Shown: piece by piece, positions 136 through 25,931 of the stretch
How the letters are laid out: each line of letters begins with the position of its first letter
Position numbering within the stretch: position 1 is the first letter of the stretch
From: a virus
Lineage: Duplodnaviria > Caudoviricetes
Direction: 5' to 3' (one strand)
IMG/VR virus record: IMGVR_UViG_3300015203_000020
Span: 1-34,555 of that record
Length of the DNA stretch: 34,555 bases
Translations under genes and position numbers: made by a program
Notes under the pieces: generated by a model
Seen by the model: only the letters and a program-made list of their open reading frames with translations
What the model was told of the DNA's origin: nothing
Database searches by the model: none

Positions 136-150
136 ATATTAAATTCCTTT

Positions 151-1875
151 TTAGATATAATCATCAAACCCATTTACTATTAAACTGACCGTATCACTCG
201 CATTTGAAACGAGATACTGAACAGAAGGGACATTATTGATACCCGTTACTCCGCAAATAATTCGTTTATTATTTATAGCAACCCCAATAAGTGCCGCTTG
301 GCATATTTCAAAAATAACACTTCCGCCTGGGCCAGTTCCTGTCGATCCCGTTGCTCTTATTGATAAGAAGTTCCCAGGTGTCGCGCCAATATAAACACCA
401 CCCATATAGACTGGGCAAATTCTTGGAATGCTTCCTAATTCAATTGCAAAATAACCCGTAGAAGAACCACCATTTAATACAAAATGACCTTGGTCATAAT
501 AATAATTACGAGTGTTATAAATTCCGGTTTGTCTGAAAGTGCGAATAAAATTAGAAGCTGTACAATTGATCCAACCAATTAAACGATAAGTATCATAACC
601 AGCAGGTAATACAGATGGGCCTAAATTACCGTCATATATATAAAGAGAAGCAAGTGTTGCAACAGGATTCACGCTTGTTGAGTCACTGATTAGAAATATC
701 TTATACATATTAAAAGGGCCAAATGTAAAAGTACCTGTATCTAATCCATTTGCTCCACTGGCTGCCACATCTAATGTAATCGGCGCACCATTTATCATAT
801 TTGTTGTATTAGAAGAATCGATACATTGACCGGCTGATATTGAGATAGTTGTATTGGATAACCAACTTAAATTTAATTGATATATGAAATTAAAATTATC
901 CACGCCTGCGGTAGGAGGGATAGCATATACACCATCACCTCTTAAAAATGTTGTATTAGTTGGAGTTGATCCCAATGAAGCAGGTGACCATCTAATGCCC
1001 GTAGGTAATATTGCTTGATTAATAGCAGTTGTAGTTGCATTCATACCTAAAGCAATAGAATTAGAAAAATTAGCAGTAGAATGACTTCCTATTGCCACAT
1101 TTCCAGCACTTCCAGTTGCCGCTGTATCACCGATAGCAATTGATTCTGTTGGCTGATTTGTGGCACCCGCTGCAACGCCAATTGCGATTGCACTTTGACC
1201 TTGATTGCTGCTACCCGCATCTAATCCGATTGCAATTGCTTGCGCAGCTTGTCCGTCCAGCGCAGCAGAGTTACCGATTGCAATAGCATTAATATCTTGA
1301 GGAGTATTAGCGCCCGCTTGTAATCCTAGAGCAATTGAGCCAGCACCTTGAATTAAATTACCTGCATGATTACCAATTGCTATACCATTTGGGTTGCCCG
1401 TTTTAGCAGAAGGCCCCAAAGCCATGGAATTAATACCACCGGCCCCAGCTTGATTGCCCATAACAACTGCATTCACATTGTTTGCTATGCTATTAGAACC
1501 TATGGCAATAGAATTTGCGCCTTGATTAGCGGGTGATGCCGCATTACCTATTGCAATTGCTCCACTACCTTGATTAGTGACTGCAGCACCTAAACCAAAC
1601 GAAAGAGCATTTGCACCTTGTGTACTTCCAGCTTGTGATTGTTGACCTTCATAAAACCAGCCATTCACACCAGCAGAAATATTTTTTAATACATAATTCG
1701 GAGTGATACCAGCACCAGTAAAAGCATAACGAGTATCAAATGTAGTTTGCAGGGCAGTACGCATTTGCAATCGTGTTTCTTTTTGCGATCCCGCACCATT
1801 TAATGAATTTTCATAGAGGTCAGTGTCGTTAGGCGTGACTTGCGCAGTTAAATCTATAATTCGTCTATCAGCCAT
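151..1875 (-). CDS. Tail fibre/adhesin with YadA-head-like (trimeric beta-roll) repeats
   Basis: Many tandem Q-G-x-x-A/S-I-A-I-G repeats, a TFLRGDG fibre motif, a distinct C-terminal domain, and position in the tail cluster. Confidence 0.8.
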   Translation of the reverse strand: MADRRIIDLTAQVTPNDTDLYENSLNGAGSQKETRLQMRTALQTTFDTRYAFTGAGITPNYVLKNISAGVNGWFYEGQQSQAGSTQGANALSFGLGAAVTNQGSGAIAIGNAASPANQGANSIAIGSNSIANNVNAVVMGNQAGAGGINSMALGPSAKTGNPNGIAIGNHAGNLIQGAGSIALGLQAGANTPQDINAIAIGNSAALDGQAAQAIAIGLDAGSSNQGQSAIAIGVAAGATNQPTESIAIGDTAATGSAGNVAIGSHSTANFSNSIALGMNATTTAINQAILPTGIRWSPASLGSTPTNTTFLRGDGVYAIPPTAGVDNFNFIYQLNLSWLSNTTISISAGQCIDSSNTTNMINGAPITLDVAASGANGLDTGTFTFGPFNMYKIFLISDSTSVNPVATLASLYIYDGNLGPSVLPAGYDTYRLIGWINCTASNFIRTFRQTGIYNTRNYYYDQGHFVLNGGSSTGYFAIELGSIPRICPVYMGGVYIGATPGNFLSIRATGSTGTGPGGSVIFEICQAALIGVAINNKRIICGVTGINNVPSVQYLVSNASDTVSLIVNGFDDYI

Positions 1876-1892
1876 TCCATGGCCTCCTTTTG

Positions 1893-2045
1893 TTAATCAA
1901 AATCTACTATACGAGTATCCAAATCATCAGTGATACGTTTTTCCAAAGCATCAGTAATACGGTTGTCAGATGGGGGAGGGGGTGGGCCTCCTCCTCCGCC
2001 AAACATTCCATAAATAAGCATTACTATATTGCCTAAGTAAGTCAT
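1893..2045 (-). CDS. Small 50-aa tail-associated protein (not in ORF track)
   Basis: MTYLGNIVMLIYGMFGGGGGPPPPPSDNRITDALEKRITDDLDTRIVDFD. The start overlaps the upstream stop (TAATG) and the ORF fills the gap. Confidence 0.7.
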   Translation of the reverse strand: MTYLGNIVMLIYGMFGGGGGPPPPPSDNRITDALEKRITDDLDTRIVDFD

Positions 2046-2338
2046 TAGCTTCCCCAGCGTAGAGAGGCAGCGGGGATAGTTGTTCCCGCAGCATTACACA
2101 TAATGGTATGGATTGGATGCCAAACACCGGCCGCTAAACCGATTAAATTTTCAGTAGTTCCATCCCATTTCACATAAGATAAATTGCCGGTCGTTCCAAC
2201 ATATAACCATCTAGCAAATTCACCATAAGGCGTACCAAAAACCACAAGCCCAGTTCTTACAATGCCAGCAAGTTCCCTTACCGGCCCTGTAAAATTATTA
2301 GGATCAAGTGGTGTCGATTGAACTGTCATCAATGACAT
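2045..2338 (-). CDS. Small virion structural protein (tail/spike-base type)
   Basis: Beta-rich RWLYVGTTGNL...GVWHPI pattern typical of small phage tail accessory proteins, with an AAGGAG SD. Confidence 0.6.
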   Translation of the reverse strand: MSLMTVQSTPLDPNNFTGPVRELAGIVRTGLVVFGTPYGEFARWLYVGTTGNLSYVKWDGTTENLIGLAAGVWHPIHTIMCNAAGTTIPAASLRWGS

Positions 2339-2357
2339 AACTACTCCTTGTTAATCT

Positions 2358-2792
2358 TTATGGTGCAACAAAAGTAACTGGATCAGTTCCAATAACTTGT
2401 GGCACTGGTTCAACTAACATTGCCATATGGCCGCCATGAGCTGCACCGGCTCCAATAGGAGCGTGCATCCCAGCACGTAATTGGCCGCCAGATTGGAAGT
2501 CACCACGACGAATCAACTGCCATGCGCTGCTTGTAGAACCTGGGACTAATACTTCATAAATTCCATTCTGAGCGGGCGCTGTTTGGTTGGCTACGAGAAC
2601 AGCATCATTTAGATTGAGCGTCACAGTATCAATAACTAATGCAGCTAAACCGCCTGAGTTAGTTAATGTTGCGTTAATACCACTGTTTGGAAATGCTGGA
2701 TTATAAACAGCAGTTAAGTTAGCTGTGGTCATTACACGGCATGGGGTTAACAATGATGGGTAAACATAATCACTTGGTCTTGTTACTGACAT
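2358..2792 (-). CDS. Virion protein; stand-alone paralog of the N-terminal domain of the 714-aa fibre
   Basis: VLVANQTAPAQNGIYEV motif and clear similarity to 135..1 plus the start of 34554..32542. Confidence 0.75.
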   Translation of the reverse strand: MSVTRPSDYVYPSLLTPCRVMTTANLTAVYNPAFPNSGINATLTNSGGLAALVIDTVTLNLNDAVLVANQTAPAQNGIYEVLVPGSTSSAWQLIRRGDFQSGGQLRAGMHAPIGAGAAHGGHMAMLVEPVPQVIGTDPVTFVAP

Positions 2793-2828
2793 AAACTTAC
2801 TCCTTTAAGTTAAAAAAATATTCCATTG

Positions 2829-4412
2829 TTACAATTTTAAAAATACATTCGCAAAAGATGTGGGTTGCATATTTCGCCCTACACCAGTGACACCAGTAGG
2901 ATTGATGACAAGAGGTCTATCAAATCCAGGGCCTAAAGTAACACCAGCACGTGCTGTACTGTTGCCTCCTGTAGTCGTAGTATCAGTTGGGATGATTACA
3001 TCACCAGTATGTGTATGAGAAACCACTACCGCATCCTCAAAACCAATATTTTGTCCCAGTCTTCTTGCTGTTAATCCAGCACCACTACCCGCACTAGCAA
3101 TTGTTCTTCCTAATTGTTTAGTTAAGGTTAATGAATTTCCAGCATCAAAATCGGCGGCTGCGCTTGCTCCACGCAAAGGTAATAATGCACCCGTCGGACT
3201 ATATCTTTGGACATCAGCATCATTTAATGTCCACAAAATACTATACAAATAAAATGTATCTTGATTAGCTCGAGTTACAACTTGCCCAGGAACTACAGGT
3301 TGATTTCTATTAATAACTCCATCATTCATAGGCACCCAACTAAATGGTTGAAATGAATTCAAAGAAATACGATGATCACCTGTTCTAGGCATATTAATAT
3401 CTGAATAAATCTGATCATCCGATTCAAATTCTGATATGGCATTCAAATTTCCATAATAACAAGATGGTTTGCAGAAATTTACATTAACTGATTGATCGAT
3501 AGGCATGTTAACTCTTAAATAACTGCCATCATTTCCGCACGTCCCTAACACCTTTCCAGCGGTAGAGCTTATAGGAAGGGTAGCTCTAAATTGAGTCCAT
3601 GCTCCCGATCCAGGAAGTGCAAAAGTTGCAATGGTTTGAAAATCTGGCGCACTTGCGCCACCACCATCGCCATAATATTTATACAAATCTAATCTTATTG
3701 ATGAAGCTGCCACATTTAAATTTTGCGCCCAAATAGTAAAAGTAAAAGTTTGATTTTCCATTACTTTAACTTTTGGCTGAATTGGGAATTGGAAGGCTTT
3801 AACGCTTTCACCAACTACAGAATTTGAATTGTAATTTACATAAACCAATGGCGTATTATCACCTGATAAAGGTGTATTACCTTGACCAAATGGAACAAAT
3901 CTAAGTGTATCGGCTGCGGTCGATGCGCCTTTAATAAATAGAGTTTCAGGAAATTGAAATGCTGAATGTGCCCCTGGAGCAAGAATAGTATTTCCAACAG
4001 GGACAGGAGCCGGATTAAAGTCATTGGTATGGTTTAAAAATACATTATTAATGATGTAATTTTTATTAGGAATAATAGTTGTACCGCCGCCACCACCTCC
4101 GCCACCAGAAGGTGCGCCAAAATCATCTTGTGTAAACACTTCATTGCCAGCGGCATCTTGAACAACAAGAAAGTAAAGATCATTTGGCATCGTATCATCA
4201 AATTTCCAATAGAATGGCCCTTGTGTCCCGTTTAAATCCCAAGGCACAGGATTAGGCCAAGGAATATTACCACCTGGATCTTGAAATACTGGCTTATCTG
4301 CCACTTTATTCAAAGAAGACCGAGTAAACATTCTACCACCACCAAGCGGTCGGCCAGTCAGGTCAGCCAAATACCATTTGGGTATTGGTAGTAAATTATA
4401 AGTTATTGCCAT
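2829..4412 (-). CDS. Primary tail fibre/tailspike with particle-binding N-terminus and tail-collar-like C-terminus
   Basis: N-terminal DLTGRPLGGGRMFT...PVFQD...PNPVPWDLNG resembles podovirus head-binding domains. A Gly linker follows, and the C-terminal SHTH...NMQP is a collar/tip motif. It lies after the ejection genes. Confidence 0.75.
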   Translation of the reverse strand: MAITYNLLPIPKWYLADLTGRPLGGGRMFTRSSLNKVADKPVFQDPGGNIPWPNPVPWDLNGTQGPFYWKFDDTMPNDLYFLVVQDAAGNEVFTQDDFGAPSGGGGGGGGTTIIPNKNYIINNVFLNHTNDFNPAPVPVGNTILAPGAHSAFQFPETLFIKGASTAADTLRFVPFGQGNTPLSGDNTPLVYVNYNSNSVVGESVKAFQFPIQPKVKVMENQTFTFTIWAQNLNVAASSIRLDLYKYYGDGGGASAPDFQTIATFALPGSGAWTQFRATLPISSTAGKVLGTCGNDGSYLRVNMPIDQSVNVNFCKPSCYYGNLNAISEFESDDQIYSDINMPRTGDHRISLNSFQPFSWVPMNDGVINRNQPVVPGQVVTRANQDTFYLYSILWTLNDADVQRYSPTGALLPLRGASAAADFDAGNSLTLTKQLGRTIASAGSGAGLTARRLGQNIGFEDAVVVSHTHTGDVIIPTDTTTTGGNSTARAGVTLGPGFDRPLVINPTGVTGVGRNMQPTSFANVFLKL

Positions 4413-4438
4413 TATTCACGTCCTTGTGAAATCATTAA

Positions 4439-6705: not shown

Positions 6706-6712
6706 AATTCAC

Positions 6713-7339
6713 CTATCCGAATATTCCGCCAGTCAACATTCTCAATCCACCGCCAATCATATTAGATGTATCTTGTTGACGACCCGCTTGTTGTCCATAA
6801 GCACCTTGAGCCATGCTATTACCCATATTTCCATACATATTCGTCAATTGATTAGCTGCCCCTTGTCCCATGCCAGCCATTTGGCCAAGTCCAGCACCAT
6901 ATTGTGTATTAAGACCTAACATATTCTGTAACCAATCATTCATTCCTTGTTGGCCAATATTTCCAGCATTCTGCTGCATTTGCATCATCAAAGGAGTGCT
7001 ACCCGTTAAACCACTAGCAGATCCTGCATTTTGTGCAGCACGCATAGCTTGTTGTTGTAAAAATTGGTTATATGGAGACTGTTGATATTGACTCATCATA
7101 TTATTAAGAAATTGCGATGGATTACTTTGTTGCTGTAACCAATTTTGCATTTGAGGTAAAGCTTGTCCGCCAGCCTGTAAAAAAGGATTTTGCGCAGCTG
7201 CACCTTGTTTGCCATACTTTTCTATTTGATGCATTCCAGCTTCAAATGGGGCGCCAGAATCTCCGAACATTCCACCCAGAAATTGCGTGAGACCACCGCC
7301 CATTTGGCCGCCCATTTGCATCATCATTCGTGGATCCAT
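6713..7339 (-). CDS. DNA transfer/pilot protein (P22 gp7-like)
   Basis: G/Q/M/A-rich 208 aa with a SPYNQF...AAQNAGSASG...GST segment and Gly-rich hydrophobic ends; synteny. Confidence 0.7.
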   Translation of the reverse strand: MDPRMMMQMGGQMGGGLTQFLGGMFGDSGAPFEAGMHQIEKYGKQGAAAQNPFLQAGGQALPQMQNWLQQQSNPSQFLNNMMSQYQQSPYNQFLQQQAMRAAQNAGSASGLTGSTPLMMQMQQNAGNIGQQGMNDWLQNMLGLNTQYGAGLGQMAGMGQGAANQLTNMYGNMGNSMAQGAYGQQAGRQQDTSNMIGGGLRMLTGGIFG

Positions 7340-7354
7340 CCGTGGATCTCCTTT

Positions 7355-10512: not shown

Positions 10513-10779
10513 TTATTTAACGGGAAAAGCCTCTTTATCCAAACCTTTAGTCAATGCACGACCAAGTTCTTGCGCATGAGCGCCATTGTTCATCATCTCA
10601 GCGTCAAACATCATGTCTTTTTCTTCAAGACGTGGAGCGCGACCGCCTAATTTAGCAAGTCTAGCTTCCTGACTTTTAACGAAAGAATCAGTGCCGCTAT
10701 GTTGCGCTTCTTCCATCCCGTGCCTTTTGTTCGCTATTGCTGCTTCCTTTCCGTCTCGCATTGTGTAGTCTTTGCTCAT
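10513..10779 (-). CDS. Hypothetical protein
   Basis: ORF in the late operon with an SD; fills the gap. Confidence 0.6.
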   Translation of the reverse strand: MSKDYTMRDGKEAAIANKRHGMEEAQHSGTDSFVKSQEARLAKLGGRAPRLEEKDMMFDAEMMNNGAHAQELGRALTKGLDKEAFPVK

Positions 10780-10906
10780 ATTTTTCCCTCATTGCTTTTG
10801 CTTCAGTTGGGTGCTTAAACCAAACGCCCGTTGTCAAAAGATCTTCATACTCTTCATCCTCAACCACTTTCATTTCATTCACAGGATGATAAATACAATT
10901 CAACAT
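10697..10906 (-). CDS. Hypothetical protein downstream of coat
   Basis: AAGGA SD and a short acidic domain ending GVWFKHP. Confidence 0.6.
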   Translation of the reverse strand: MLNCIYHPVNEMKVVEDEEYEDLLTTGVWFKHPTEAKAMREKYEQRLHNARRKGSSNSEQKARDGRSAT

Positions 10907-10920: not shown

Positions 10921-12138
10921 TTAAGAAATTAACTTAACTGCATACTCTGGATGCCATGTGAAACCACATAGGACGTCAAGACGCATAAAGTTTTGATATC
11001 CAAGAATGTCACCAGTTTGTGTAACTGCAAGTGACAATCCAGTTTCGGGATCAACCGCTACGGATGCGTATGGAACTTGTAGTTTATAGAGTGGTGGGCA
11101 AACGATATCTAAGGCACGGGTAGGATAAGCAACGTTTACGTTGTAACCAGATGTGAGAACTGGAGTAACAACGGCACCGTTTGGCACTGGATTGCTTACA
11201 TTACGACGTGGGTTATTCGGATCGGAAATAATTACTGGGGCCACTTGGACTGTTATCGCACCGGCACCATTTGAGGAGGCGGGAGCTTGAACAACAAATT
11301 GCATGTTTTGACCAGTTGCCTTACGACCAACAGGGTTAACAGATTGTACGCCAGCAATGGAAATCAAATCACCTGGTAAGAAATAATTGGTGATGTTGAT
11401 AGTAGCGCCAGCTAATACGAGAGTATTACCAGAAGCCACAGCACCGTTCACAGTTAGAACGTCACCTGGGAAACCAGCAGGGCCAGCACCGTTAGTATGA
11501 CGAATAATATTCTGAGATTGGAACACATCAAAATAAGATAAGTGACCAATAGCTGATTGGCGTACGATTTCTTCGTTAAACACTGGGGTGAATTGATTTA
11601 GCAAAGAACCTTTCAGCGCAGAACCATCGCGAACGGTCATTGCAAGATAAGCATCAGCAGAGATATTAACACCTTGTTCTAACAATTTAGCACCAGCTAA
11701 ATCGACAGTCGTATAAGAGTTAATTGGCGTACCAGCATTACCAGTGAAGAAGTTCAATTGCACTTCAGCAGCAGCGCCGATGTCTTTTTCCATCTGGGTG
11801 ATAATTTCTTGAATCGCAGGTTGAATAAATAAGCGACTGAAGTCTTCAATCTTCAATGTTAAATCTTTAATCGTATAAGCAATCAAAGCATTGTATTGAT
11901 GAGCGACAGTGATATTTTCAACTTGTTCAACGATATCTTGCGGAGTTGCTACGGCGCCGTCACCAACTAAAAAGTGATTTTGTCTGCGAACTTGCAAGGT
12001 GTCACCGATCTTATATCCAGAAGACATAAAGTCATCTTGATAAATTCGGCTAGCGGTCATTGTGAAAGGGTTGTTGTTAGCAAACATTGCAAGCGCAGTG
12101 TTACTAACTAACTGGGTAGTGATAAATTGATTAGCCAT
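10921..12138 (-). CDS. Major capsid protein (P22 coat gp5 family)
   Basis: MAN start, KIGDTLQVRR, SRLFIQPA, an insertion domain (PGDLISIAGVQSVNP) and C-terminal RLDVLCG; follows scaffold. Confidence 0.92.
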   Translation of the reverse strand: MANQFITTQLVSNTALAMFANNNPFTMTASRIYQDDFMSSGYKIGDTLQVRRQNHFLVGDGAVATPQDIVEQVENITVAHQYNALIAYTIKDLTLKIEDFSRLFIQPAIQEIITQMEKDIGAAAEVQLNFFTGNAGTPINSYTTVDLAGAKLLEQGVNISADAYLAMTVRDGSALKGSLLNQFTPVFNEEIVRQSAIGHLSYFDVFQSQNIIRHTNGAGPAGFPGDVLTVNGAVASGNTLVLAGATINITNYFLPGDLISIAGVQSVNPVGRKATGQNMQFVVQAPASSNGAGAITVQVAPVIISDPNNPRRNVSNPVPNGAVVTPVLTSGYNVNVAYPTRALDIVCPPLYKLQVPYASVAVDPETGLSLAVTQTGDILGYQNFMRLDVLCGFTWHPEYAVKLIS

Positions 12139-12197
12139 TATAGCTTCTCTCCATTAGTTATTAATGGCGAGCTTCAGTAATTCCATTACTTTAAGTC

Positions 12198-13234: not shown

Positions 13235-13747
13235 ATGTCTAATATTGTCAAAATTTGCTCTATTCATGGATCATTAGATCAAAAAGATATAAAAATAAGA
13301 AAAAAATTAAATAATAAAAGTAAAATTCAATATCGATGCAATATTTGTCATTTACATAGTGGACGTGTTTCTTATCAGCAAAAGCGGTTAAGAGAAGGAT
13401 ATGAGTTAAAAGGAAAGCTAATTGAAAAATTAAGACTTCCCAAAAGAATTAAAATTTCTAGAAAAGATCAAATGAGAAAAATCAAATTAATGTATAAATA
13501 TAGGATATCTATTGAACAATATAATGAAATGGCAATAAATCAAAATAACTTATGCCGAATTTGCAAAAAACAAGAACAAGGAAAAGCTCCATCTGGAAAA
13601 TTTAGAGATTTAGCAGTAGATCACTGTCATAAAACAAATAAAATAAGAGGCTTATTATGTGGAAAGTGCAATAGAATGCTTGGTTATGCAAAAGATTCCA
13701 TAGAAATTCTTCAATCAGCAATTGAATATCTAAAAGCCTCTACATAG
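13235..13747 (+). CDS. Endonuclease VII-like (His-Me finger) free-standing endonuclease
   Basis: QNNLCRIC...LAVDHCHKTNKIRGLLCGKCNRMLG. GAGG SD before ATG 13235; very AT-rich and antisense to its neighbours. Confidence 0.88.
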   Translation: MSNIVKICSIHGSLDQKDIKIRKKLNNKSKIQYRCNICHLHSGRVSYQQKRLREGYELKGKLIEKLRLPKRIKISRKDQMRKIKLMYKYRISIEQYNEMAINQNNLCRICKKQEQGKAPSGKFRDLAVDHCHKTNKIRGLLCGKCNRMLGYAKDSIEILQSAIEYLKAST

Positions 13748-15929
13748 AGGCTTTTTCTTTCTGCTGGGGACTGTGGTGCTTATGCAAATCCGTAATCAAA
13801 GCAGCAATCTTAGCCGAATGATCCAATTCAGACTTATGCAGATTGATAGCATGGCCTGTCTGAGCTACTTTATTCTTCTCCGACATCTCATGCGCTTTCA
13901 TTACCATTTCGAGTTTCTCTAATTGATGCTTCTCTTGCCTGATCTTCAACTCTTCCGCACGTTCTTGTAATGCCATTTCTTCAACATGCATTTTCTGTTC
14001 TTTCAATGCCATCTCCTGTTGTGCCATCTGCATCTGTTGCTGCATCATTTGTTGTTCAGGATTTGGTTTTGGAGGAGGAGGTGGCTCACCAGCTTCTTTA
14101 GCTAATATTTCAGGTGGCACAAGATTTTTTAAGCGCTCAACAATCTGCGGCATCCATTGAACATCCAAGTTCTTAGCCCATAGATCAGCAACCAAGTTAA
14201 ATACTTGTGGATCAGCAGAAACAGTTTGTTGTAAGAACTCCAACGCAATTTCTTTCTGTACTGCAAATGAAGGCCCAGCATCAATTTCAATATCAAACTC
14301 ACCACCTTGTAACGAATTAAGAATTTGATCATCACCTTTGCGTTGGTTTAATACCATGTTTTGAGTCTTACCATCTGCTTTAGACACGACAACATGACGT
14401 TCTTCATCACCATAAATCACTGGTAATAAATCCAATACCACACGCCCAGCTTGTTCTATAGCTTGATTCAAGTTATCAAAGAAGATGTAAGCAGACATAC
14501 TGCCTTCCATCTTACGTTCACGACGAGCCTTACCAGATATATCTTTACCTTGTAACTGTTCAGCCTCTGAGAAACCTAATATTTCTCTCATGTCCTGACC
14601 AGCTCGTTGGAAGTTGGCCATCAATGCAGGTGATACATCCCAAGGTGGTTGCTTCATTGGCATTTGGCCCGTCTTAGGGTCAGGTTTGGCCATTAAAATA
14701 CCTAATTGTTGCTCAGGATTGCGCCACATTTGTTCCTGACCAATGATGTTGTCGGGCGTTCCCAACCATTGTTCACGACGACGATTCTTCACCTCAGCGG
14801 CAATTTCCGTGCCAACAAAGTTAGCAAAGCGTTGCGCATCTTTGGCTTCATGAATAAATGATCTTGTGTATTGTCTACCTTCAATAAAGCATGAATCGCC
14901 ATCCACAAATACGATAGGTAAATGTTTAGATGGCCACTCAGAGAAATCAATAATGCAGTCATGAGTCATCCTATAGTGCATAATCTTGTAATCTTGCGTT
15001 TGTCGTTCAGCAACAATAGTGGGGATTTCTTTCAAGATCAGTCCGCCAACCACAACAGAATCTTGGGCCAATTCTTTCATCATCCTGAATTTCTTTTGCA
15101 TCGAGACCCATTCAGCTTCACTGACAGTCATACCATTAGATAACTTATAAATAATGGTAGAGAACCATTCCTTCTGAAAGTAATCACATACAACTATGGT
15201 GTCTCTTGTCTCCCATTGAAAATCCAATAATGTTCTAGGATCCATATAAGACACAGGATTCTTGATATAAGGATAGGTTGCGGCAAATTCATCTTTACGG
15301 AACACATGATTTCTAGCGCAGTAATTACCATCACCTTTATGAGGTTTCAATGCCACTGGATCAAAGGTAGTTCTAGTCGCGTCAGGAATAATTTGATATC
15401 GTAAAACTTGATTGAAACTACGCGGAGATTCATATTCTAATGAAATCTGAAAGGCCCCAAAACCCGAATATAGAGCCGACCGAAACGCTGTCTGGTACAC
15501 AAGGTCGTTTTGTGATTGATAAGATATCGTCCTTACTAAATCAGCTCGGAGGTCTATTTGATCTTGGGTGGCTTTCCCCGTTAGAGATCGAACTATTAAA
15601 TCAGGCTTATTCTTCCGTTGCTCGCCTGCAATTTTCTTTGTTACATCGTATAGCTTGTTAAACGTCATGCAAGGTTTAAACAAACGCTGAAACTCTGATC
15701 TCTCTACTGCTGTCCATTGATCTCGTAATAGAAAGTTCTGATCTTCCTTACCTCTAGTAATGTTCTCGTTAAAATAAGAGTTCCAAACATTGAGATTGTC
15801 TCGTGCTTTAGCCAGTACATCATGCTCATTGATCCCAGCTTCTTTGAGATCACTAAGCCTACGTTCTTCCATTTCGTTAACATCATCAGCGGATAAATCA
15901 GAATCTACATCATAGGTGTCGTGCTTCAT
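13740..15929 (-). CDS. Portal protein (P22 gp1-like)
   Basis: About 730 aa with DQW...PCMTFNKL, AKDAQRFAN, DISGKA, FFDNL, GEFDIEIDAGPSF and a long C-terminal coiled-coil barrel. Start at 15929 or 15944. Confidence 0.92.
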   Translation of the reverse strand: MKHDTYDVDSDLSADDVNEMEERRLSDLKEAGINEHDVLAKARDNLNVWNSYFNENITRGKEDQNFLLRDQWTAVERSEFQRLFKPCMTFNKLYDVTKKIAGEQRKNKPDLIVRSLTGKATQDQIDLRADLVRTISYQSQNDLVYQTAFRSALYSGFGAFQISLEYESPRSFNQVLRYQIIPDATRTTFDPVALKPHKGDGNYCARNHVFRKDEFAATYPYIKNPVSYMDPRTLLDFQWETRDTIVVCDYFQKEWFSTIIYKLSNGMTVSEAEWVSMQKKFRMMKELAQDSVVVGGLILKEIPTIVAERQTQDYKIMHYRMTHDCIIDFSEWPSKHLPIVFVDGDSCFIEGRQYTRSFIHEAKDAQRFANFVGTEIAAEVKNRRREQWLGTPDNIIGQEQMWRNPEQQLGILMAKPDPKTGQMPMKQPPWDVSPALMANFQRAGQDMREILGFSEAEQLQGKDISGKARRERKMEGSMSAYIFFDNLNQAIEQAGRVVLDLLPVIYGDEERHVVVSKADGKTQNMVLNQRKGDDQILNSLQGGEFDIEIDAGPSFAVQKEIALEFLQQTVSADPQVFNLVADLWAKNLDVQWMPQIVERLKNLVPPEILAKEAGEPPPPPKPNPEQQMMQQQMQMAQQEMALKEQKMHVEEMALQERAEELKIRQEKHQLEKLEMVMKAHEMSEKNKVAQTGHAINLHKSELDHSAKIAALITDLHKHHSPQQKEKASM

Positions 15930-15974
15930 TCTGTAACCTTCCATGGTTAAATGAGTTTAAGTATAGCTTATATT

Positions 15975-19044: not shown

Positions 19045-19052
19045 GATCCCAC

Positions 19053-19316
19053 CTAATCAAATAATTCTCTATGCAATAAAAATCCCGCCTCAAATCCTTT
19101 GGCATAATGTCTATTCATGCATTCGTCAATCTGAATTTTCATTCTTTGGATTTCACCCATTAATTTATTCATTTCTGAAAAAAATTTATCCTCAAAGATA
19201 GATATTCTTTGTTGATCAGTCATTGTATAAATATCTTTTCCTGCGCATAATCCAGTGCATAATAAAACATTACTGCCATCTTCATTTTTGCATTTACAAG
19301 ACATTACATCTCCCAC
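19053..19316 (-). CDS. Hypothetical protein
   Basis: Overlaps the terL stop; Cys-rich N-terminus and coiled coil. Confidence 0.55.
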   Translation of the reverse strand: MGDVMSCKCKNEDGSNVLLCTGLCAGKDIYTMTDQQRISIFEDKFFSEMNKLMGEIQRMKIQIDECMNRHYAKGFEAGFLLHRELFD

Positions 19317-20866
19317 CTAAAGTTAGGATTAAACATATCTACCACTTCCTTCTTAGCCTTCTTCTCCGCAATACTATGAGCCGCATGCTCCAATGCCCTA
19401 TATTGTAGACAATCGTGAACATGCGAAGAACCATTTTTAAATGGCTTATCTTTAAATCTTTCTTCACCTGATACAGCTAATCTCTGAAAGTAATAATCTT
19501 TAATAAACCCCTTGCGTAATGTCTGACAATGCTTGCGATCCAAACAAAATGCTGGCTTACCATCTATCATTGTTCCCAAAAAGAACCGTACAGAAGATAG
19601 ACGAGGATCAAGCTCATTACTACGAGCCCCGACAGTATTAATTCCCAGCTCATTTAATTCTCCGATACATGACATTTCCTCGAGTATTTGATCTCTTGAT
19701 GCGCCTGAAGGATCAGCTACGTTACTGACTCCAATAGTTGAATAAGGAAAATCCCTCGCTATTCCTGGTAATACCACTGACTCAACAAATGTACGTATGC
19801 CCATCCCTTCTGAGCAATATTCTTTTAACGCCATCAGCCTTCCACGTGGCGTCATTTGTGTAACTAAGCAAGTCGGTGTCAATCCAAAGTCAAATGACAA
19901 ATCCACAGACTCACCTTGAATTGCTGTTAAGCCATCAGCCGAATGAAGATCATCGTTATATTCTGGGTAAACAAGCTTACCTGATCCCACAGACCCCCAG
20001 TCTCCCAAACAGAAGACTTTAACAAAGTTCTCTGTCTGTCCTTGTGATAGCTTTGAATAGTAATCATGTGATTGAGATAAATTATTAATATTGTCAGCAT
20101 TAAGATTCTCTTGCCATTGTCCATCTTCATCTTTTATTAACCCAGGTGGTTGTCTAAATAATCTATAATTTTCGACAGGCTTTTCGTAAAAATCTCGATA
20201 GATCCAATGATCAGTTTCACAAGGATTAGTATCAGCAATAATACCAGACCAATAGGGATCACTACAAAATTGACGACTAGGATAACGGCCGTTAATACGA
20301 CCTTTAAAATGTGATAAAGCATTTTGCGGAAGTTCCGATAATTCATTCAAATACACACCCGTTAATTCAAGAGATTTAATTTTACGTACATCGTCTGGTC
20401 TATCAAGAGCTAAAAATATGATCTCAAGCTCGACCATTCCATCGCCATCATTAAATAGATGTTCATAAGTTAATATTGGCTTCTGACGCTTCCTTATGTC
20501 TCCCAGATCACCGAACCAGGCAAGCCAAGTCTGGAGGGTTGTACTTTGTAACTCTCCGCTGGTATTTCGCACGATTCCCCATCTTGCTCGTCTTCTTCCG
20601 TTGTGCCACTTGGGCATTTCGCAGGTTCTTCTGACAATTTTTTGAATGCACATTGTTGACTTGCCAGACCCGTAAGGCCCAACCACGCAACTAACAAATG
20701 AATTATCATTCCCAAACTGAAGGCCAGTAGGGCTAGGAATATAGACTTTAGGTTTATCTTGAGCATGTATGATCGTCCTGTCTTCCAAGAATGTAATATG
20801 TTGCATCGAAGATTGATTCTTAGATTGTTCTAATTTTATTACTCTATCAAGTAGCTCACGTTTCAT
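19304..20866 (-). CDS. terL: Terminase large subunit
   Basis: Walker A GPYGSGKS, Walker B variant GVYLNE, coupling motif DTNP, RNase H-like SFDFGLTP and SHVHDCLQY. ATG 20866 preferred over GTG 20938. Confidence 0.92.
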   Translation of the reverse strand: MKRELLDRVIKLEQSKNQSSMQHITFLEDRTIIHAQDKPKVYIPSPTGLQFGNDNSFVSCVVGPYGSGKSTMCIQKIVRRTCEMPKWHNGRRRARWGIVRNTSGELQSTTLQTWLAWFGDLGDIRKRQKPILTYEHLFNDGDGMVELEIIFLALDRPDDVRKIKSLELTGVYLNELSELPQNALSHFKGRINGRYPSRQFCSDPYWSGIIADTNPCETDHWIYRDFYEKPVENYRLFRQPPGLIKDEDGQWQENLNADNINNLSQSHDYYSKLSQGQTENFVKVFCLGDWGSVGSGKLVYPEYNDDLHSADGLTAIQGESVDLSFDFGLTPTCLVTQMTPRGRLMALKEYCSEGMGIRTFVESVVLPGIARDFPYSTIGVSNVADPSGASRDQILEEMSCIGELNELGINTVGARSNELDPRLSSVRFFLGTMIDGKPAFCLDRKHCQTLRKGFIKDYYFQRLAVSGEERFKDKPFKNGSSHVHDCLQYRALEHAAHSIAEKKAKKEVVDMFNPNFRWEM

Positions 20867-21023
20867 TTGATTTCTTTTCTTTGGGTGGTCTAAGTTGTTC
20901 TTGAGTTGTAAATCGAAAGCCGCAACGCAAGCATTCACGTCTGCGACTTATAGTATTGGTTTTTTCATTTTGATTTGTATCAACGACTCGATTGGTGGGA
21001 TATCCGCAGTGCGTGCAATGCAT
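20856..21023 (-). CDS. NrdR-N-terminal-like zinc-ribbon protein, 55 aa (not in ORF track)
   Basis: MHCTHCGYPTNRVVDTNQNEKTNTISRRRECLRCGFRFTTQEQLRPPKEKKSNET, with an AGGA SD. Confidence 0.85.
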   Translation of the reverse strand: MHCTHCGYPTNRVVDTNQNEKTNTISRRRECLRCGFRFTTQEQLRPPKEKKSNET

Positions 21024-21047
21024 TTATCATCCTAAAATGTTTCTCAA

Positions 21048-21063
21048 TGTTTCTCGTGGAACA
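21048..21063. promoter_or_regulatory. parS-like palindrome
   Basis: TGTTTCTCGTGGAACA; its reverse complement TGTTCCACGAGAAACA is one mismatch from TGTTNCACGTGAAACA. Intergenic. Confidence 0.55.
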
Positions 21064-21073
21064 ATGTAACAAT

Positions 21074-21250: not shown

Positions 21251-21686
21251 TGCTATTATCCTTTTGAGATTTCTCTAATTTCTCTAGTCTTTCGCGCATT
21301 TCTATTTCTACAGAATCAGCAGTAAATTGCTTACGCCATCTGCGTTCTAATAGCCATGCTCTTGCTTGCCAACGCTCTGTTTGGTCTTCCAAAGCAGCTA
21401 TGTGAGATTTAACTTTCGTCATCTCTGCTTCTTTAATATCCTTGGAAAATTTTGCAAATTCGGAATCATTATTTCCGTTCTCTCTATCTTTTATTCCGCG
21501 ATTAATCCAATCATATAATGTGGATTCATCTATGCGAGCACTCCATGCAGCCATTTCGTATGGAAGGTTATGTAAAATAGCATCAATGATTTTAGCCCTA
21601 ATTTTTGGGCACATTTTGGTTGGTCTACCAACATCATTCATTCGAGCAATTCCATTGTAATTGATTACTAATTGTCCTCTTAACAT
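21243..21686 (-). CDS. terS: Terminase small subunit (HTH type); probable start 21641
   Basis: GRPTK, an HTH (YEMAAWSARIDESTLYDW) and WQARAWLLERR; upstream of terL. Confidence 0.78.
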   Translation of the reverse strand: MLRGQLVINYNGIARMNDVGRPTKMCPKIRAKIIDAILHNLPYEMAAWSARIDESTLYDWINRGIKDRENGNNDSEFAKFSKDIKEAEMTKVKSHIAALEDQTERWQARAWLLERRWRKQFTADSVEIEMRERLEKLEKSQKDNSNG

Positions 21687-21729
21687 AAAGATATTGCAAG
21701 GGGGAGAATGAAATATATGACAACAAATG

Positions 21730-21758
21730 TTGACATAGGGAAATAGGCTTGATATGAT
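21730..21758 (+). promoter_or_regulatory. Sigma70-type promoter
   Basis: TTGACA, 17 nt, TATGAT, upstream of the AAGGA SD and ATG 21781. Confidence 0.8.
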
Positions 21759-21780
21759 GCCGGAATAAGGATAAATAAAA

Positions 21781-21978
21781 ATGAAATTCAGATTAATTAA
21801 AGAAAAACGTTTTGTATGTTATACATTAGAAGTTTTTGAAAATAATGAATGGAAATATATTGAAATGGTAAGCGGTACAGAAGATGAAGCAAAACAAACA
21901 GCAAAATATTATATTGAAAAATATAAGCAGGAAATTTTAAAACCAGATATGAATATTATTCAAGAATGGGAAGAATAA
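21781..21978 (+). CDS. Hypothetical protein
   Basis: First gene behind a near-consensus promoter, with a good SD. Confidence 0.7.
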   Translation: MKFRLIKEKRFVCYTLEVFENNEWKYIEMVSGTEDEAKQTAKYYIEKYKQEILKPDMNIIQEWEE

Positions 21979-21980
21979 AA

Positions 21981-22130
21981 ATGATATCTACAATAACAAA
22001 TATAATTGTGGCATCTATTTACAGTGTTCTTTGTTTTTGGTTGAAAAGTCCGGCATATGTAGCATTTATGTTATTTGTGGTGAGTTTTTTGGGGCTTGAG
22101 ATTATTGACGCAATAAGAGGAAGAAGATAA
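21981..22130 (+). CDS. 49-aa membrane peptide with two hydrophobic segments (not in ORF track)
   Basis: MISTITNIIVASIYSVLCFWLKSPAYVAFMLFVVSFLGLEIIDAIRGRR. Confidence 0.6.
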   Translation: MISTITNIIVASIYSVLCFWLKSPAYVAFMLFVVSFLGLEIIDAIRGRR

Positions 22131-22216
22131 TGAAAAACTATTTTTACAAAAATTTAATTTGGTGCATAATCATCGGTTTAGGAATTTACGAATGTTTAAG
22201 ATTAATTACAAATTAA
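22130..22216 (+). CDS. 28-aa single-TM peptide (not in ORF track)
   Basis: MKNYFYKNLIWCIIIGLGIYECLRLITN, with TAATG coupling and a GAGG SD. Confidence 0.5.
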   Translation: MKNYFYKNLIWCIIIGLGIYECLRLITN

Positions 22217-22225
22217 GGAATTAAA

Positions 22226-22459
22226 ATGATTAAAAATAAATTTTCATCAAAAATGTATCGCGAAGGGTTTGCAGACGCATTAAATTTAGTTATTAAAATA
22301 ATAAGTAGAAATCCAGTAATATTAGGTCATGAAATAGCTAAATTTCTCCATGAACATTTTACGGAAAAAAAATGCCTGCACATCGGACAGGAAGCACAGG
22401 CCAAAGACAAAACGAGAATAAACAAATCAAGGATTTTGTTTCAGGAATCAGAGCGATGA
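22226..22459 (+). CDS. Hypothetical protein
   Basis: AAGGA SD; last gene of the plus-strand cassette. Confidence 0.6.
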   Translation: MIKNKFSSKMYREGFADALNLVIKIISRNPVILGHEIAKFLHEHFTEKKCLHIGQEAQAKDKTRINKSRILFQESER

Positions 22460-22608
22460 TACGCTGAGACTTCGCATACTTCAATAGATGGGGAGGATAA
22501 ATTATTTTTAAAATCCCTCCAATCGGACAATTCTAGCTCATGGTGTGCCAAGATGACGATGACAAATGTCACCCAAAGAATTTTGAATATATTCCACAAC
22601 CATTGCAT
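22441..22608 (-). CDS. 55-aa membrane-anchored protein after the holin (not in ORF track)
   Basis: MQWLWNIFKILWVTFVIVILAHHELELSDWRDFKNNLSSPSIEVCEVSAYHRSDS; starts 2 nt after the holin stop. Confidence 0.5.
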   Translation of the reverse strand: MQWLWNIFKILWVTFVIVILAHHELELSDWRDFKNNLSSPSIEVCEVSAYHRSDS

Positions 22609-22610
22609 AG

Positions 22611-23048
22611 CTAGCTACCGAAATAAAGTTTAAAGACCGTCTTTAATTCAGATAATAGTACGCCAATGCTGACGAGTAAGAAATGGTTTAGATTGGAATC
22701 TTTTACAAATATTAAAGCAACAATATTGAGGGCAGTGAGCACGAGCAATCCAGCCACTAGGAAGTTACGCATCTTTTCCACATTTGTCATTCCACGAGCA
22801 GAGATTGTGTCATCCACAGACAGCTTTTTTAGCGCTTCTTCATGTTTAGCTTCAATATCTTTTAGCTTTTCTTCTGCCTCAGGGTCAGAAGATATTTTGG
22901 CTAGCATTTCGGGCAGAGATCCGCCGCCAAAAGCTTCTGAGATCAGAGAGCCCGCAATACCACCCCATGGGCCACCCAATACACTGCCCAATAACGGAGC
23001 TACCTTTGTTACAGTTGAAACAAGATCGGTCATCCAAGCTTCAGTCAT
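22611..23048 (-). CDS. Holin-like membrane protein (3TM / GTA-holin type)
   Basis: VAPLLGSVLGGPWGGIAG, DDTISAR, two C-terminal TM helices ending YFGS; in the lysis cluster with an ATGA overlap to the HNH gene. Confidence 0.72.
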   Translation of the reverse strand: MTEAWMTDLVSTVTKVAPLLGSVLGGPWGGIAGSLISEAFGGGSLPEMLAKISSDPEAEEKLKDIEAKHEEALKKLSVDDTISARGMTNVEKMRNFLVAGLLVLTALNIVALIFVKDSNLNHFLLVSIGVLLSELKTVFKLYFGS

Positions 23049-23650
23049 AAAATATTCCATCCTTTATTCGAAACTATTCTATGGATAGTACTCTTTGCAA
23101 CATTAAATTCATTGGCTAATTGTGACAATGAGCATTGGGGATATTTTGTTCTTATAGATTTTATGTCTATATTTTTTAATTTAGAAGCAGGATGACCCTC
23201 GCCTTTCATTCTTGGCGGAGTAGGAATTGTTCCATGAAGATACATATCATTCATATTGTTTTTGTGAGTGTCCCATCTTAAATTATGGATATGATTATTT
23301 TTATAATTACCATCATTGTGACAGGCTTCTTGATCTTTTAAAGGGAACCCACGAAAAGTTATTAATACTAATCTCGCTACTGTTTTTACATATGTTTTAT
23401 TATTTTTTCGTAAAGTTACCTTAGTTACTTTTTTATAGTTATCGTTTCTAAAATAAAGTTTTAATAATTTTTCTTTTTTATTAATAATTCTTGTTTCTAC
23501 TTTATAATTTTTATTAGATGTAAGATAACCAAATTCATCACGGCGAATAAAAAATTTTATTGTTCTAGCATTAGATTTAACTCTTCCAAATGAACTTATT
23601 TGATAATCTGGAAATTCCTCTATTGTTTTCCATATTTCATTATTTTCCAT
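23045..23650 (-). CDS. NUMOD4-HNH homing endonuclease with C-terminal HTH
   Basis: EIWKTIEEFPDYQISSFGRVKS (NUMOD4); ACHNDGNYKNNHIHNLRWDTHKNN (HNH). Confidence 0.92.
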   Translation of the reverse strand: MENNEIWKTIEEFPDYQISSFGRVKSNARTIKFFIRRDEFGYLTSNKNYKVETRIINKKEKLLKLYFRNDNYKKVTKVTLRKNNKTYVKTVARLVLITFRGFPLKDQEACHNDGNYKNNHIHNLRWDTHKNNMNDMYLHGTIPTPPRMKGEGHPASKLKNIDIKSIRTKYPQCSLSQLANEFNVAKSTIHRIVSNKGWNIL

Positions 23651-23658
23651 TTTATATC

Positions 23659-24081
23659 CTATGATTCTAATAAAAATGCATATTTTTGATATCTATTATG
23701 TAAAAGTCTTGCCGCTTCAGAATCCAGTAATTCACTGGCCGCCATTTTAAAATCAGAATTTTCGATAGCATTTAACATTTTACGAAAATTCATCAATCCT
23801 ATTATGCCTAAATTATAGGACAAAGCAAGAAGCACAGACTTTCTTGTATCGTCTAGTTTTAAATAAGTTGGATAAGATTTTATCAATTCTTCTTCGCAAA
23901 CAGAAACATCTTCTAATAACATTGCTTCTGCAATGCTTTTACTAATACCATTTGCAGTCAAATTATGACCGAACCCACAAGTCATATGGCCAGTGGTGTC
24001 TTGATAAACATACTGACGAAACCCTTCATCAGTTTTAAGACCTTCTAAAAATTGATCAAACGCACTGCCTGTTAATATCAT
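23659..24081 (-). CDS. Endolysin, GH24 (T4-lysozyme-like) muramidase
   Basis: DEGFRQYVYQDTTGHMTCGFGHNL with the E-x8-D-x5-T catalytic triad, plus YNLG and FRKMLNA. Confidence 0.92.
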   Translation of the reverse strand: MILTGSAFDQFLEGLKTDEGFRQYVYQDTTGHMTCGFGHNLTANGISKSIAEAMLLEDVSVCEEELIKSYPTYLKLDDTRKSVLLALSYNLGIIGLMNFRKMLNAIENSDFKMAASELLDSEAARLLHNRYQKYAFLLES

Positions 24082-24223
24082 CTAAACTTTCCTCCTCATC
24101 CATGGCTCCTAAATCAAATGATAGCATACCGTCACACGCCCTACCGCATCGGTCACACACGTAATAATGTGTTGTATGTCCATCAACAGTCATATCAGCT
24201 CGACAACATCTTGACACCATCAT
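24056..24223 (-). CDS. Small Zn-ribbon protein (not in ORF track)
   Basis: MMVSRCCRADMTVDGHTTHYYVCDRCGRACDG...; bridges the VRR-NUC and lysozyme genes. Confidence 0.6.
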   Translation of the reverse strand: MMVSRCCRADMTVDGHTTHYYVCDRCGRACDGMLSFDLGAMDEEESLDDINRQCV

Positions 24224-24623
24224 TAAACCTGCCATCCAAATAAGTAATTATTGTTTTAATTGCAGCCTCAGCCCCCCAGCACACCCTAGCCGCATATCCC
24301 GAATCTGAGAGCCACTGTAGCCATTCATGCTGTTCGGGGGATACTATCCCACCCCCTGACCGTTTTAATTCAATGTAGAGGCCGTGGTAAGGCTCTATTG
24401 GCATCGGTATGCAAATGTCTGGCACGCCAGGACTCACTCCGCTGCGTTTTAAGTTAGCCGCCTCAATCAAAGTACGCCATGATCCATTAGGGATTGCATA
24501 ATGTTTGATCTTCTTTATTTTCATCCAGTCGACCAGAGCTATTTGTTCCTGTAGCTCGGTTGCTGTCAAAGCTCTCTTTCTGCGTTTCTTTATCTGAGCT
24601 GATTTTAGATCCACTATTTCCAT
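24195..24623 (-). CDS. VRR-NUC domain nuclease
   Basis: AIPNG...GVSPGVPD...GLYIELK...SPEQHEWL, a PD-(D/E)xK motif. Confidence 0.9.
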   Translation of the reverse strand: MEIVDLKSAQIKKRRKRALTATELQEQIALVDWMKIKKIKHYAIPNGSWRTLIEAANLKRSGVSPGVPDICIPMPIEPYHGLYIELKRSGGGIVSPEQHEWLQWLSDSGYAARVCWGAEAAIKTIITYLDGRFNDGVKMLSS

Positions 24624-24771
24624 ATAGTGCCTTTAATCCTTCAAAGTAATTTGTAGTAAAGATACGTTTCATTTCATCAATCCTTGTAACCATATGGCTT
24701 ATAAGATTTTGAATATTGTTTATGTTGCTCTTGTGGCTCAGTTGGAACATATTCTCGTCTGTTTCTTTCAA
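24487..24771 (-). CDS. Hypothetical protein
   Basis: ORF track; overlaps both neighbours. Confidence 0.35.
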   Translation of the reverse strand: MKETDENMFQLSHKSNINNIQNLISHMVTRIDEMKRIFTTNYFEGLKALYGNSGSKISSDKETQKESFDSNRATGTNSSGRLDENKEDQTLCNP

Positions 24772-24940
24772 CCATTTCCCATGCCTCGATTTCTCTTAGC
24801 CAGCGATTTCGATCATATTTGTCATCATTGCTCAACGTTCTAATGGCTTCCAATTCCGGGATAGCTATTAATCTTGCTCTTCTCACTTTTTCTTTTTCAA
24901 TCACTGATTGGGCGTGTGCGCCACAATCCAATATGATCAT
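24677..24940 (-). CDS. Hypothetical protein downstream of the initiator
   Basis: ATGA overlap with the initiator gene. Confidence 0.55.
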   Translation of the reverse strand: MIILDCGAHAQSVIEKEKVRRARLIAIPELEAIRTLSNDDKYDRNRWLREIEAWEMVERNRREYVPTEPQEQHKQYSKSYKPYGYKD

Positions 24941-25590
24941 TGTAGCTTTCCTTCTTCCTTGAGCTTAAGTCCTAATTTTTTTAATGCTTCTTTTGAATTT
25001 ATCATTTCTTGCTCATGTTTATGATCATACCCATTGGATTTATATTCTCCAATTTCATTCTTTCCGAAAAATGATTTCAGACGTATTTTATTGTTTCTTA
25101 ATTGATCATCCTCGCTTTTAGCTTTTTGCTTTTGGATTTCAGGTGCAACCTCGCCGTTAGGCGCACTGATAGTTAATACTGATAAGTCAATATTGATCGT
25201 GTCAACTGGGGTTGACCGGTGCGGTCTACTGCAGTTGACCGGTAGCGCAACTGCAGTTGACCGGTCAGGAGTTATACAGCGGTCAACTGCAGTTGACTGG
25301 TCAAGGAGGAAATTAAGTATGTATTGATGCGCTTTACCTGTCTTTCTTATGACCGAAATGATATTTTTTTCATCAAGTATATTGATACGCATTTTGATAT
25401 AAGTGGGAGTTTTTCTGAGCAATTTTGCAAGAGTAGCGGTAGATGGAAAGATACCTTTAGGGCCATAAAATTTAGCCAATAGTATTAATATATGTTTATC
25501 AATATCTAAGATATGGTATTTGTCTATTTCTTCCGAATAAACAAAATTCATTACTTGAAATACGACGTGGACGTCTTTTTGTTTAGCCAT
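24937..25590 (-). CDS. Replication initiator/replisome organizer (N-terminal winged HTH)
   Basis: IFPSTATLAKLLRKT...INILDEKNIISV HTH followed by a linker encoded by DNA repeats, as in lambda O; AAGGAGG SD. Confidence 0.75.
   Translation of the reverse strand: MAKQKDVHVVFQVMNFVYSEEIDKYHILDIDKHILILLAKFYGPKGIFPSTATLAKLLRKTPTYIKMRINILDEKNIISVIRKTGKAHQYILNFLLDQSTAVDRCITPDRSTAVALPVNCSRPHRSTPVDTINIDLSVLTISAPNGEVAPEIQKQKAKSEDDQLRNNKIRLKSFFGKNEIGEYKSNGYDHKHEQEMINSKEALKKLGLKLKEEGKLQ
25201..25297. repeat. Four palindromic 16-bp iterons (GTCAACTGCAGTTGAC consensus); putative replication origin
   Basis: Copies at 25201, 25224, 25246 and 25282, each followed by C/TGGT. Confidence 0.8.
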
Positions 25591-25609
25591 ATACCCTCCT
25601 TGGTATTAA

Positions 25610-25846
25610 TTAACTCATATGACTAAATGGCGGTAATCTCTTTTGATTAAAAATGAAATAATTAATTTCATCAACAAGTTGTTTTGCTGAAATTTCTACA
25701 TAATAAAAATAATCTTTATAAGTATTAAAAGAACAACAAATTCTATCATAAGGCTCAATAGATTTAATTTCAGTTAATTTGATAAAACATTCTTGACGTG
25801 ATTTGATATTGGTAGCTTGGATGAACGCACCATCTATAATAGACAT
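25610..25846 (-). CDS. Hypothetical protein
   Basis: AAGGA SD; upstream of the initiator. Confidence 0.6.
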   Translation of the reverse strand: MSIIDGAFIQATNIKSRQECFIKLTEIKSIEPYDRICCSFNTYKDYFYYVEISAKQLVDEINYFIFNQKRLPPFSHMS

Positions 25847-25931
25847 TTAATTGTTCCTTACAGAGTATTAATACTTGATTTAATCCTTCAATATATTAAA
25901 ATACTCTTACACAGTTTATAGGGATATTCTC

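Follow-up and report, generated by a model that had tools for sequence, protein, structure and literature searches.

ANGGAN hairpins at virion gene starts

The virus genome IMGVR_UViG_3300015203_000020 (34,555 nucleotides, nt; Caudoviricetes), analysed over its entire length (hereafter the window, or G000), carries short RNA hairpins with an ANGGAN hexaloop at the starts of its minus-strand virion and packaging genes. Specificity for loop and register, covarying stems and restriction to one phage clade were all found and support the proposal of a preliminary description of this DNA that the hairpins would be CsrA/RsmA-type sites. Binding by a protein of the CsrA family is considered likely, and repression of late translation by host CsrA through these predicted operators fairly likely; host CsrA is the probable binder because the phage has no detectable csrA.

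A strict class was defined as an ANGGAN hexaloop closed by at least five Watson–Crick pairs. Six such hairpins occur in the window (2794–2811, 4415–4430, 7333–7348, 15934–15949, 24612–24629 and 25591–25606), every one at a gene start. All 11 strings cited in the preliminary description were found in place on the minus (mRNA) strand, four of them reading CANGGANG; a strict hairpin at the VRR-NUC gene (24612–24629) and its partner had been overlooked. The stems are marginal, with 8 of 12 window sites present in the local minimum-energy fold and z values from −2.3 to +1.6, and such weak stems fit the CsrA ligands obtained by in vitro selection (SELEX; consensus RUACARGGAUGU), because most of these have four or fewer pairs (PMC7652899). 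The individual sites are as follows (SD, Shine–Dalgarno sequence; bp, base pairs):

15934–15949, minus strand: portal SD hairpin; ANGGAN hexaloop on a 5-bp stem with C-G closure; orthologues covary
4415–4430, minus strand: main fibre SD hairpin; ACA-AGGA-C-GU, near the SELEX consensus
7333–7348, minus strand: pilot hairpin over the start codon; a second ANGGA, which is the SD, at 7348–7353
2794–2811, minus strand: SD hairpin of gene 2358–2792; 6 bp
2338–2353, minus strand: SD hairpin of gene 2045–2338; 8-nt loop, absent from the minimum-energy fold
1871–1883, minus strand: hairpin over the start of the YadA-like fibre gene; few orthologues
140–153, minus strand: SD hairpin of the split fibre-like gene starting at 135; 4 bp
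12176–12190, minus strand: coat-leader GGA hairpin, not an SD; about 40–50 nt upstream of the coat start
12151–12167, minus strand: coat SD-proximal stem; 3′ arm overlaps the SD, loop without GGA here
21647–21657, minus strand: weak terS SD hairpin; terS start at 21641
24612–24629, minus strand: VRR-NUC hairpin, strict class; 6 bp, start codon inside the loop
24631–24646, minus strand: second VRR-NUC site, 18 nt upstream of the first; AAGGAT loop, G-U closed
25591–25606, minus strand: initiator SD hairpin; little conservation

The cited hairpins had been described as lying over ribosome-binding sites. Not all of them do so: 10 of the 11 touch an SD or start codon, but two of these (7333–7348 and 1871–1883) span the start codon and have an AAGGAG SD immediately upstream, and the coat-leader site at 12176–12190 lies upstream. 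Of the sites previously noted as weaker, 21647–21657 corresponds to a site that terS relatives keep (14 of 34), whereas 25852–25862, with a 3-bp stem and no orthologue, was unsupported. The position of the portal hairpin implies that the start codon is at 15929 and that the ATG within the loop is not the true start. In the window, the coat stem at 12151–12167 persists with no GGA in its loop, where many relatives have ANGGAN; this natural variant could serve as a control.

Loop and register specificity

Strict stems enclose 6 of the 38 ANGGAN motifs near starts in the window and none of the 193 elsewhere (Fisher p 1.4e-5), the near-start counts resting on 60 hand-picked starts. Two null models that kept the loop, and hence the SD, were run for 100,000 rounds each: compared with the six hairpins observed, swapping flanks among genes gave at most two strict hairpins per round, and shuffling 5′ flanks at most three. 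Six control loops near starts yielded no hairpins (0/30, 0/6, 0/10, 0/19, 0/8 and 0/29), and ANGGAN accounts for six of the seven perfect hexaloop hairpins near any window start. The caveat that SD sequences contain GGA anyway, raised in the preliminary description, is answered by these loop-keeping nulls together with the register controls and the coat hairpins outside the SD given below, and as an explanation it was ruled out.

Scans with coat, portal and gp10 provided 173 partly redundant loci of relatives. The 153 close loci contain strict hairpins at 127/1555 motifs near starts versus 102/13182 elsewhere. A general P22-like trait was ruled out by the 20 distant portal loci (3/190 near starts versus 7/1533 far from them) and by ten cultured P22-like phages (0/186), several of which come from CsrA-using genera. 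All further genome counts refer to a set of 41 genomes, comprising the window and 40 of 48 relatives searched for csrA, in which strict hairpins occur at 116/1524 motifs near starts (7.6%) versus 43/9608 elsewhere (0.45%); the counts are pooled over related genomes, so the draws are not independent. Near starts, the signal vanished with altered loops (BNGGAN 4/1029, ANGAAN 6/1637) and with shifted registers (GGAGNN 1/729, AGGANN 4/1204, NNNGGA 4/2564, NGGANN 7/2555), the other GGA registers being close to background; NAGGAG, which overlaps AAGGAG, gave 7/338. The commonest strict loop is AAGGAT (65/159), exact copies of the SELEX core ACARGGAUGU number 14 near starts versus 7 in all remaining sequence, and site positions relative to the start codon peak at −14 to −12.

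These counts bear on the idea that weak hairpins at AAGGA-type SDs tune stoichiometry, coupling or temperature response without any protein. AAGGA is indeed the common SD of the clade, early genes included, and the stems are marginal. Passive damping would nevertheless need neither a 5′ A nor a 6-nt loop nor a single register, and it would hide the SD in a stem rather than expose it in a loop. Moreover, coat-leader hairpins that are not at the SD retain the loop, and other P22-like phages manage without hairpins. We consider such tuning quite unlikely.

Stem covariation

Portal leaders were aligned on the motif, without use of structure: 67 of 75 had ANGGA at −24 to −4, and the remaining 8 were dropped. 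Covariation, which the preliminary description had suggested as a check, was evident: 74.7% of stem cells were paired versus 54.6% after shuffling, a value reached in 0 of 500 shuffles. Cells changed on both sides numbered 80 versus 35.9 in shuffles, and the covariation score was 0.48 versus at most 0.22 when the alignment was slid. On the portal tree, the four inner pairs switch type at least 8, 12, 15 and 16 times, and those of the fibre only 3, 1, 5 and 1 times; in these tree-based counts the loop length was set row by row, a choice that favours pairing.

Palindromic arms around a fixed 6-bp spacer could also be DNA inverted repeats that a transcription factor binds as a dimer, for instance one of the clade's ribbon-helix-helix-like proteins, genes for which are present in 18 of the 41 genomes (fold judged by eye). 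We regard this as very improbable: arm sequences vary freely with pairing alone kept, the conserved and strand-specific part is the spacer, and positions follow start codons, not promoters.

Target genes

For counts by gene family, a relaxed class was used (loop of 6–8 nt, at least 4 pairs, G-U allowed; background 595/9605), and hairpins were counted among genes having an ANGGA. They are frequent in the pilot (26/34), portal (21/36), coat (19/34) and fibre (34/64, a family that includes gp4-like members) families, in those of genes 2358–2792 (41/78) and 2045–2338 (15/28), and in terS (14/28) and VRR-NUC (9/25), and were found in none of the terL (0/9) or gp10 (0/3) genes. Early genes are near background, as exemplified by SSB, with 2/31 despite the presence of ANGGA. 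Swaps within families gave values far below those observed (portal, mean 3.6 versus 21; pilot, 5.4 versus 26; coat, 4.8 versus 19). Across the 33 genomes with at least three late hairpins, the counts were 187/399 for virion genes, 55/279 for other late-strand genes and 21/201 for early-strand genes, a comparison that drops 8 genomes, which inflates the virion share.

Many of the coat leaders listed place the loop 5′ of a GGAG that forms the SD separately, with a second hairpin, of AAGGAT loop, farther upstream; in many relatives, the distance of an AAGGAT hairpin from the coat start is similar to that of 12176–12190. The loop is therefore kept where a role as SD is impossible. The predicted targets thus comprise virion and packaging genes and leave out lysis and early genes. 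The earlier statement that replication and virion genes are wired to Csr/Rsm was, for replication genes, not supported as stated.

csrA, sponge RNA and the binding partner

As the preliminary description had noted, G000 has no csrA candidate. With family PF02599, csrA was detected in 3 of 49 records (48 relatives plus G000), none of them G000, and all three genes pass an NCBIfam CsrA cut-off. A custom hidden Markov model (HMM) built from four CsrA proteins had no match in any of the six frames of G000 and, across the 41 genomes, matched only G004, G012 and G042. The csrA genes of relatives sit in the early Sak4/SSB operon:

L174, 1459–1659: csrA, early operon
L175, 1450–1656: csrA, early operon
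L176, 1465–1656: csrA, early operon

In L174, two GGA motifs immediately precede the csrA start, a possible autoregulation site. The presence of csrA in three relatives suggests that the group infects CsrA-using hosts and, because the hairpin-rich members lack the gene, their CsrA-family partner would be that of the host. The three carriers have late hairpins at 0/6, 0/7 and 1/8 genes, which is suggestive of a link between csrA gain and hairpin loss; five csrA-free genomes are also hairpin-poor, and the tree offers only two independent contrasts, with no significance.

No CsrB/RsmZ-type sponge RNA was matched by Rfam in the window, where the only stretch reaching 3 GGA hairpins per 120 nt, with none above, is a tRNA-like cluster. 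Neither a phage csrA nor a sponge RNA was thus found in the window by profile, HMM or hairpin-density scans.

The hexaloop might instead be read by an RNA-binding protein that the phage itself makes and that has a different fold, much as T4 RegA and MS2 coat protein bind their own RNA operators. Small conserved proteins without assigned function do occur clade-wide (10513–10779, 10697–10906, 29781–29924), but they have no match to an RNA-binding family. The motif, moreover, fits the contacts of CsrA/RsmE (the A, the GGA and the 6-nt loop), the full SELEX core occurs, and no CsrA-like protein was found in the hairpin-rich genomes. This alternative appears improbable.

The hairpins might also serve as decoys, with abundant late mRNA soaking up host CsrA to free host targets and self-repression being incidental. 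The sites do lie on transcripts that should outnumber all others (those of coat, fibres and portal), some coat-leader hairpins are well upstream of the SD, and no dedicated sponge RNA was found. A decoy would not, however, require overlap with initiation regions, whereas the sites are most frequent at −14 to −12, a position expected to occlude ribosomes, and are near background elsewhere (43/9608). We judge a decoy function unlikely.

Proposed mechanism and points against it

Under the favoured reading, the ANGGAN hairpins at virion and packaging gene starts would be operators for host CsrA/RsmA, and bound CsrA would block ribosome loading until titrated away. CsrA biochemistry (PMC7652899) would predict binding, and repression by those sites that overlie the SD or start codon. 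Genes lying directly against their upstream neighbour (terL, gp10) have no site and would be controlled through translational coupling. Release is the weakest step: because no phage sponge RNA was found, we invoke either host Csr/Rsm small RNAs or a growing pool of late mRNA out-titrating CsrA, each of which would create a threshold switch.

Several observations weigh against repression by host CsrA. No release signal or mechanism was identified, and self-repression of capsid genes would be costly without one. Lysis genes lack hairpins (lysozyme 0/12), and the initiator hairpin recurs in only 2/14 and 1/4 members of two replication-like families, so that this site is mostly private to the window genome. 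The local best fold lacks 4 of the 12 window sites. A C-G closing pair, which together with ACA/GU flanks marks top-affinity CsrA sites, is present in only 28 of the 116 strict near-start sites, although it is frequent in portal (50/67) and fibre (36/39) sites. Extra sites close by show no overall enrichment (0.74 versus 0.62 per gene), the portal (28/32) excepted; second sites were found for portal relatives, coat, VRR-NUC (18 nt) and pilot (10 nt). The AUGGA start as a general second site was dropped, as it showed no enrichment (33/263 versus 67/616, p 0.49). Finally, 8 of the 41 genomes, all three csrA carriers among them, hold only 0–1 late hairpins.

One hairpin-poor subclade consists of L051 (G049) with G013, G014 and G016. 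A member of this subclade (30% GC) is binned in a 0.5-Mb metagenome-assembled genome (MAG) in which csrA had no match, weakly hinting that operators may be lost in a CsrA-free host.

Host and growth phase

CsrA governs the biphasic (replicative/transmissive) switch of Legionella, and the preliminary description had extended this to phage development following host growth phase. As stated, the link was not supported: the csrA of a hairpin-poor relative is all that points to genomes with a Dot/Icm system, and gives one weak hint of a Legionella or growth-phase connection. This csrA scores best against genomes bearing the Dot/Icm chaperone IcmS, which make up 6 of its top 6 and 14 of its top 21 matches versus 68 of 300 sampled genomes; the genomes are not independent and the identities differ little. 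Matches of accessory proteins to IcmS-bearing genomes were mixed (2/7, 1/1 and 4/32). The cultured Legionella phage LME-1 is T7-like and integrates at dif, whereas the phage described here is P22-like; the main text of the LME-1 paper, in the part available, makes no mention of CsrA (PMC12407071).

The coat search recovered a single GTDB contig, of phage size, from a 0.5-Mb 'Buchnera sp.' MAG in which no csrA was matched. Among sequencing runs, one soil metagenome was listed as holding the sequence and may be its source, and no RNA run was listed. The terL search was negative in both of two genomes and positive in 1 of 68 IcmS-bearing genomes, there for a different phage. No prophages of this clade were found in the coat and terL genome searches. 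A 35.6-kb phage-like contig of another type (L280-L281, G060:C26) lies in an IcmS-bearing genome and shares only the terminase family.

A more far-reaching scenario, which we put forward tentatively and regard as doubtful, is that this integrase-less podophage clade handed its late switch to host Csr. The phage would idle in an intracellular Dot/Icm-type bacterium during its replication, with its virion mRNAs silenced, and assembly would begin once Rsm RNAs release CsrA at the transmissive stage; sponging by late mRNA would make the switch one-way, and lineages capturing csrA would have dropped the operators.

Genome organization

The window is the whole virus record, with a CheckV completeness figure of 99%. 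The genome is circularly permuted and very likely a closed circle, because the contig ends overlap by 4 bases and a 45-codon frame starting at 135 is continued, in the same frame, by the fibre-like gene at 34554; the start of this split gene resembles, by eye, that of its paralogue at 2792. Family profiles matched a virion set of P22-like coat, portal, scaffold, gp10-like and ejection genes and a terminase pair. Further genes encode a lysozyme, a VRR-NUC protein and a helix-turn-helix (HTH) initiator, and a Sak4/SSB early operon lies in the opposite orientation. No integrase was matched among window proteins in general family scans. The genes referred to above are:

1–135 plus 32542–34554, minus strand: fibre-like gene split by the contig ends (circular junction)
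151–1875, minus strand: YadA-like fibre
2045–2338, minus strand: gene of the family with 15/28 hairpins
2358–2792, minus strand: fibre/decoration-like gene
2829–4412, minus strand: main fibre gene
6713–7339, minus strand: pilot/ejection gene
10921–12138, minus strand: P22-like coat protein (PF11651, phrog_283)
13740–15929, minus strand: P22-like portal (PF16510)
19304–20866, minus strand: large terminase, terL (family hairpin count 0/41)
24937–25590, minus strand: initiator

A stand-alone NrdR-like zinc ribbon (20856–21023, minus strand) lies just before terL, is present in 18 of the 41 genomes and is a candidate late transcription regulator. An Endonuclease VII gene (13235–13747, plus strand) sits antisense between portal and scaffold, and a NUMOD4-HNH gene (23045–23650, minus strand) adjoins the lysozyme. 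Up to four tRNA-like elements, probably degenerate tRNAs, follow one another at 27068–27440 (plus strand), comprising one Rfam tRNA match (27070–27151, 35.6 bits), an ARAGORN call with an unreadable anticodon (27153–27226) and, by eye, two longer closed stems with ACCA ends. An inverted repeat at 27980–28019, a candidate operator, overlaps a sigma-70-like promoter (11/12) situated where the HTH repressor gene and the early operon diverge; the promoter scan was at chance level (66 versus 74.5). A 136-residue protein with a signal-peptide-like start (26650–27060, plus strand) belongs to no family, its best Atlas matches being at most 0.80. Two small basic Lys/His-rich proteins are encoded at 29781–29924 and 29928–30101 (minus strand), the former kept in 27 of the 41 genomes.

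Comparison with known systems

The predicted sites resemble CsrA/RsmA/RsmE targets, such as the RsmE-hcnA hexaloop, in having an ANGGAN hexaloop on a short, weak stem over the SD or start. Paired sites 10–63 nt apart, usual though not obligatory in CsrA targets, occur in some leaders here (VRR-NUC, pilot and coat), with no enrichment overall. Unlike known targets, they belong to phage virion genes, and many have A-U or U-A closures or loops of 7–8 nt. A parallel is the ColE7 lysis gene cel, where host CsrA represses a late, costly gene of a mobile element by acting on its SD, according to the available part of that report (PMC2896534); cel is one plasmid gene, whereas here a putative regulon of about ten phage genes would be involved, with lysis genes not targeted.

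Phage-encoded CsrA homologues were reported in 30 of 2517 phages (PMC7366521), and knockdown of one, PTXU04_00028, shrinks plaques (PMC11879866). Three relatives likewise carry csrA, unlike the present genome; Vibrio phage VvAW1 (annotated COG1551) has no hairpins, as is nearly the case for the csrA-carrying relatives. In the accessible portions of those papers, action on host genes is proposed (PMC7366521, PMC11879866), whereas the sites predicted here are on virion leaders. In Salmonella, csrA overexpression lowers prophage release, an indirect and small effect via cI and likewise a case of CsrA damping phage output, for which the text available reports no binding sites on phage mRNA (PMC12371270). 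With P22-like podophages the present phage shares virion gene set and order; it differs from the cultured ones in coats at most 30.5% identical, in having no integrase match and in the hairpins that those phages lack. A literature search, outside which most subscription papers lay, turned up no title or abstract that describes CsrA operators in the leaders of phage virion genes.

Late timing in phages is usually credited to phage-made transcription factors. If the proposed repression holds, a regulator of host growth state would gate particle assembly at the level of translation, which would give CsrA a testable role in phage life cycles, described as previously untested in the available part of PMC11879866. 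The leaders are about 50 nt long and are assayable in E. coli K-12 without the phage's own host, and the motif may help point uncultured phages to CsrA-using hosts.

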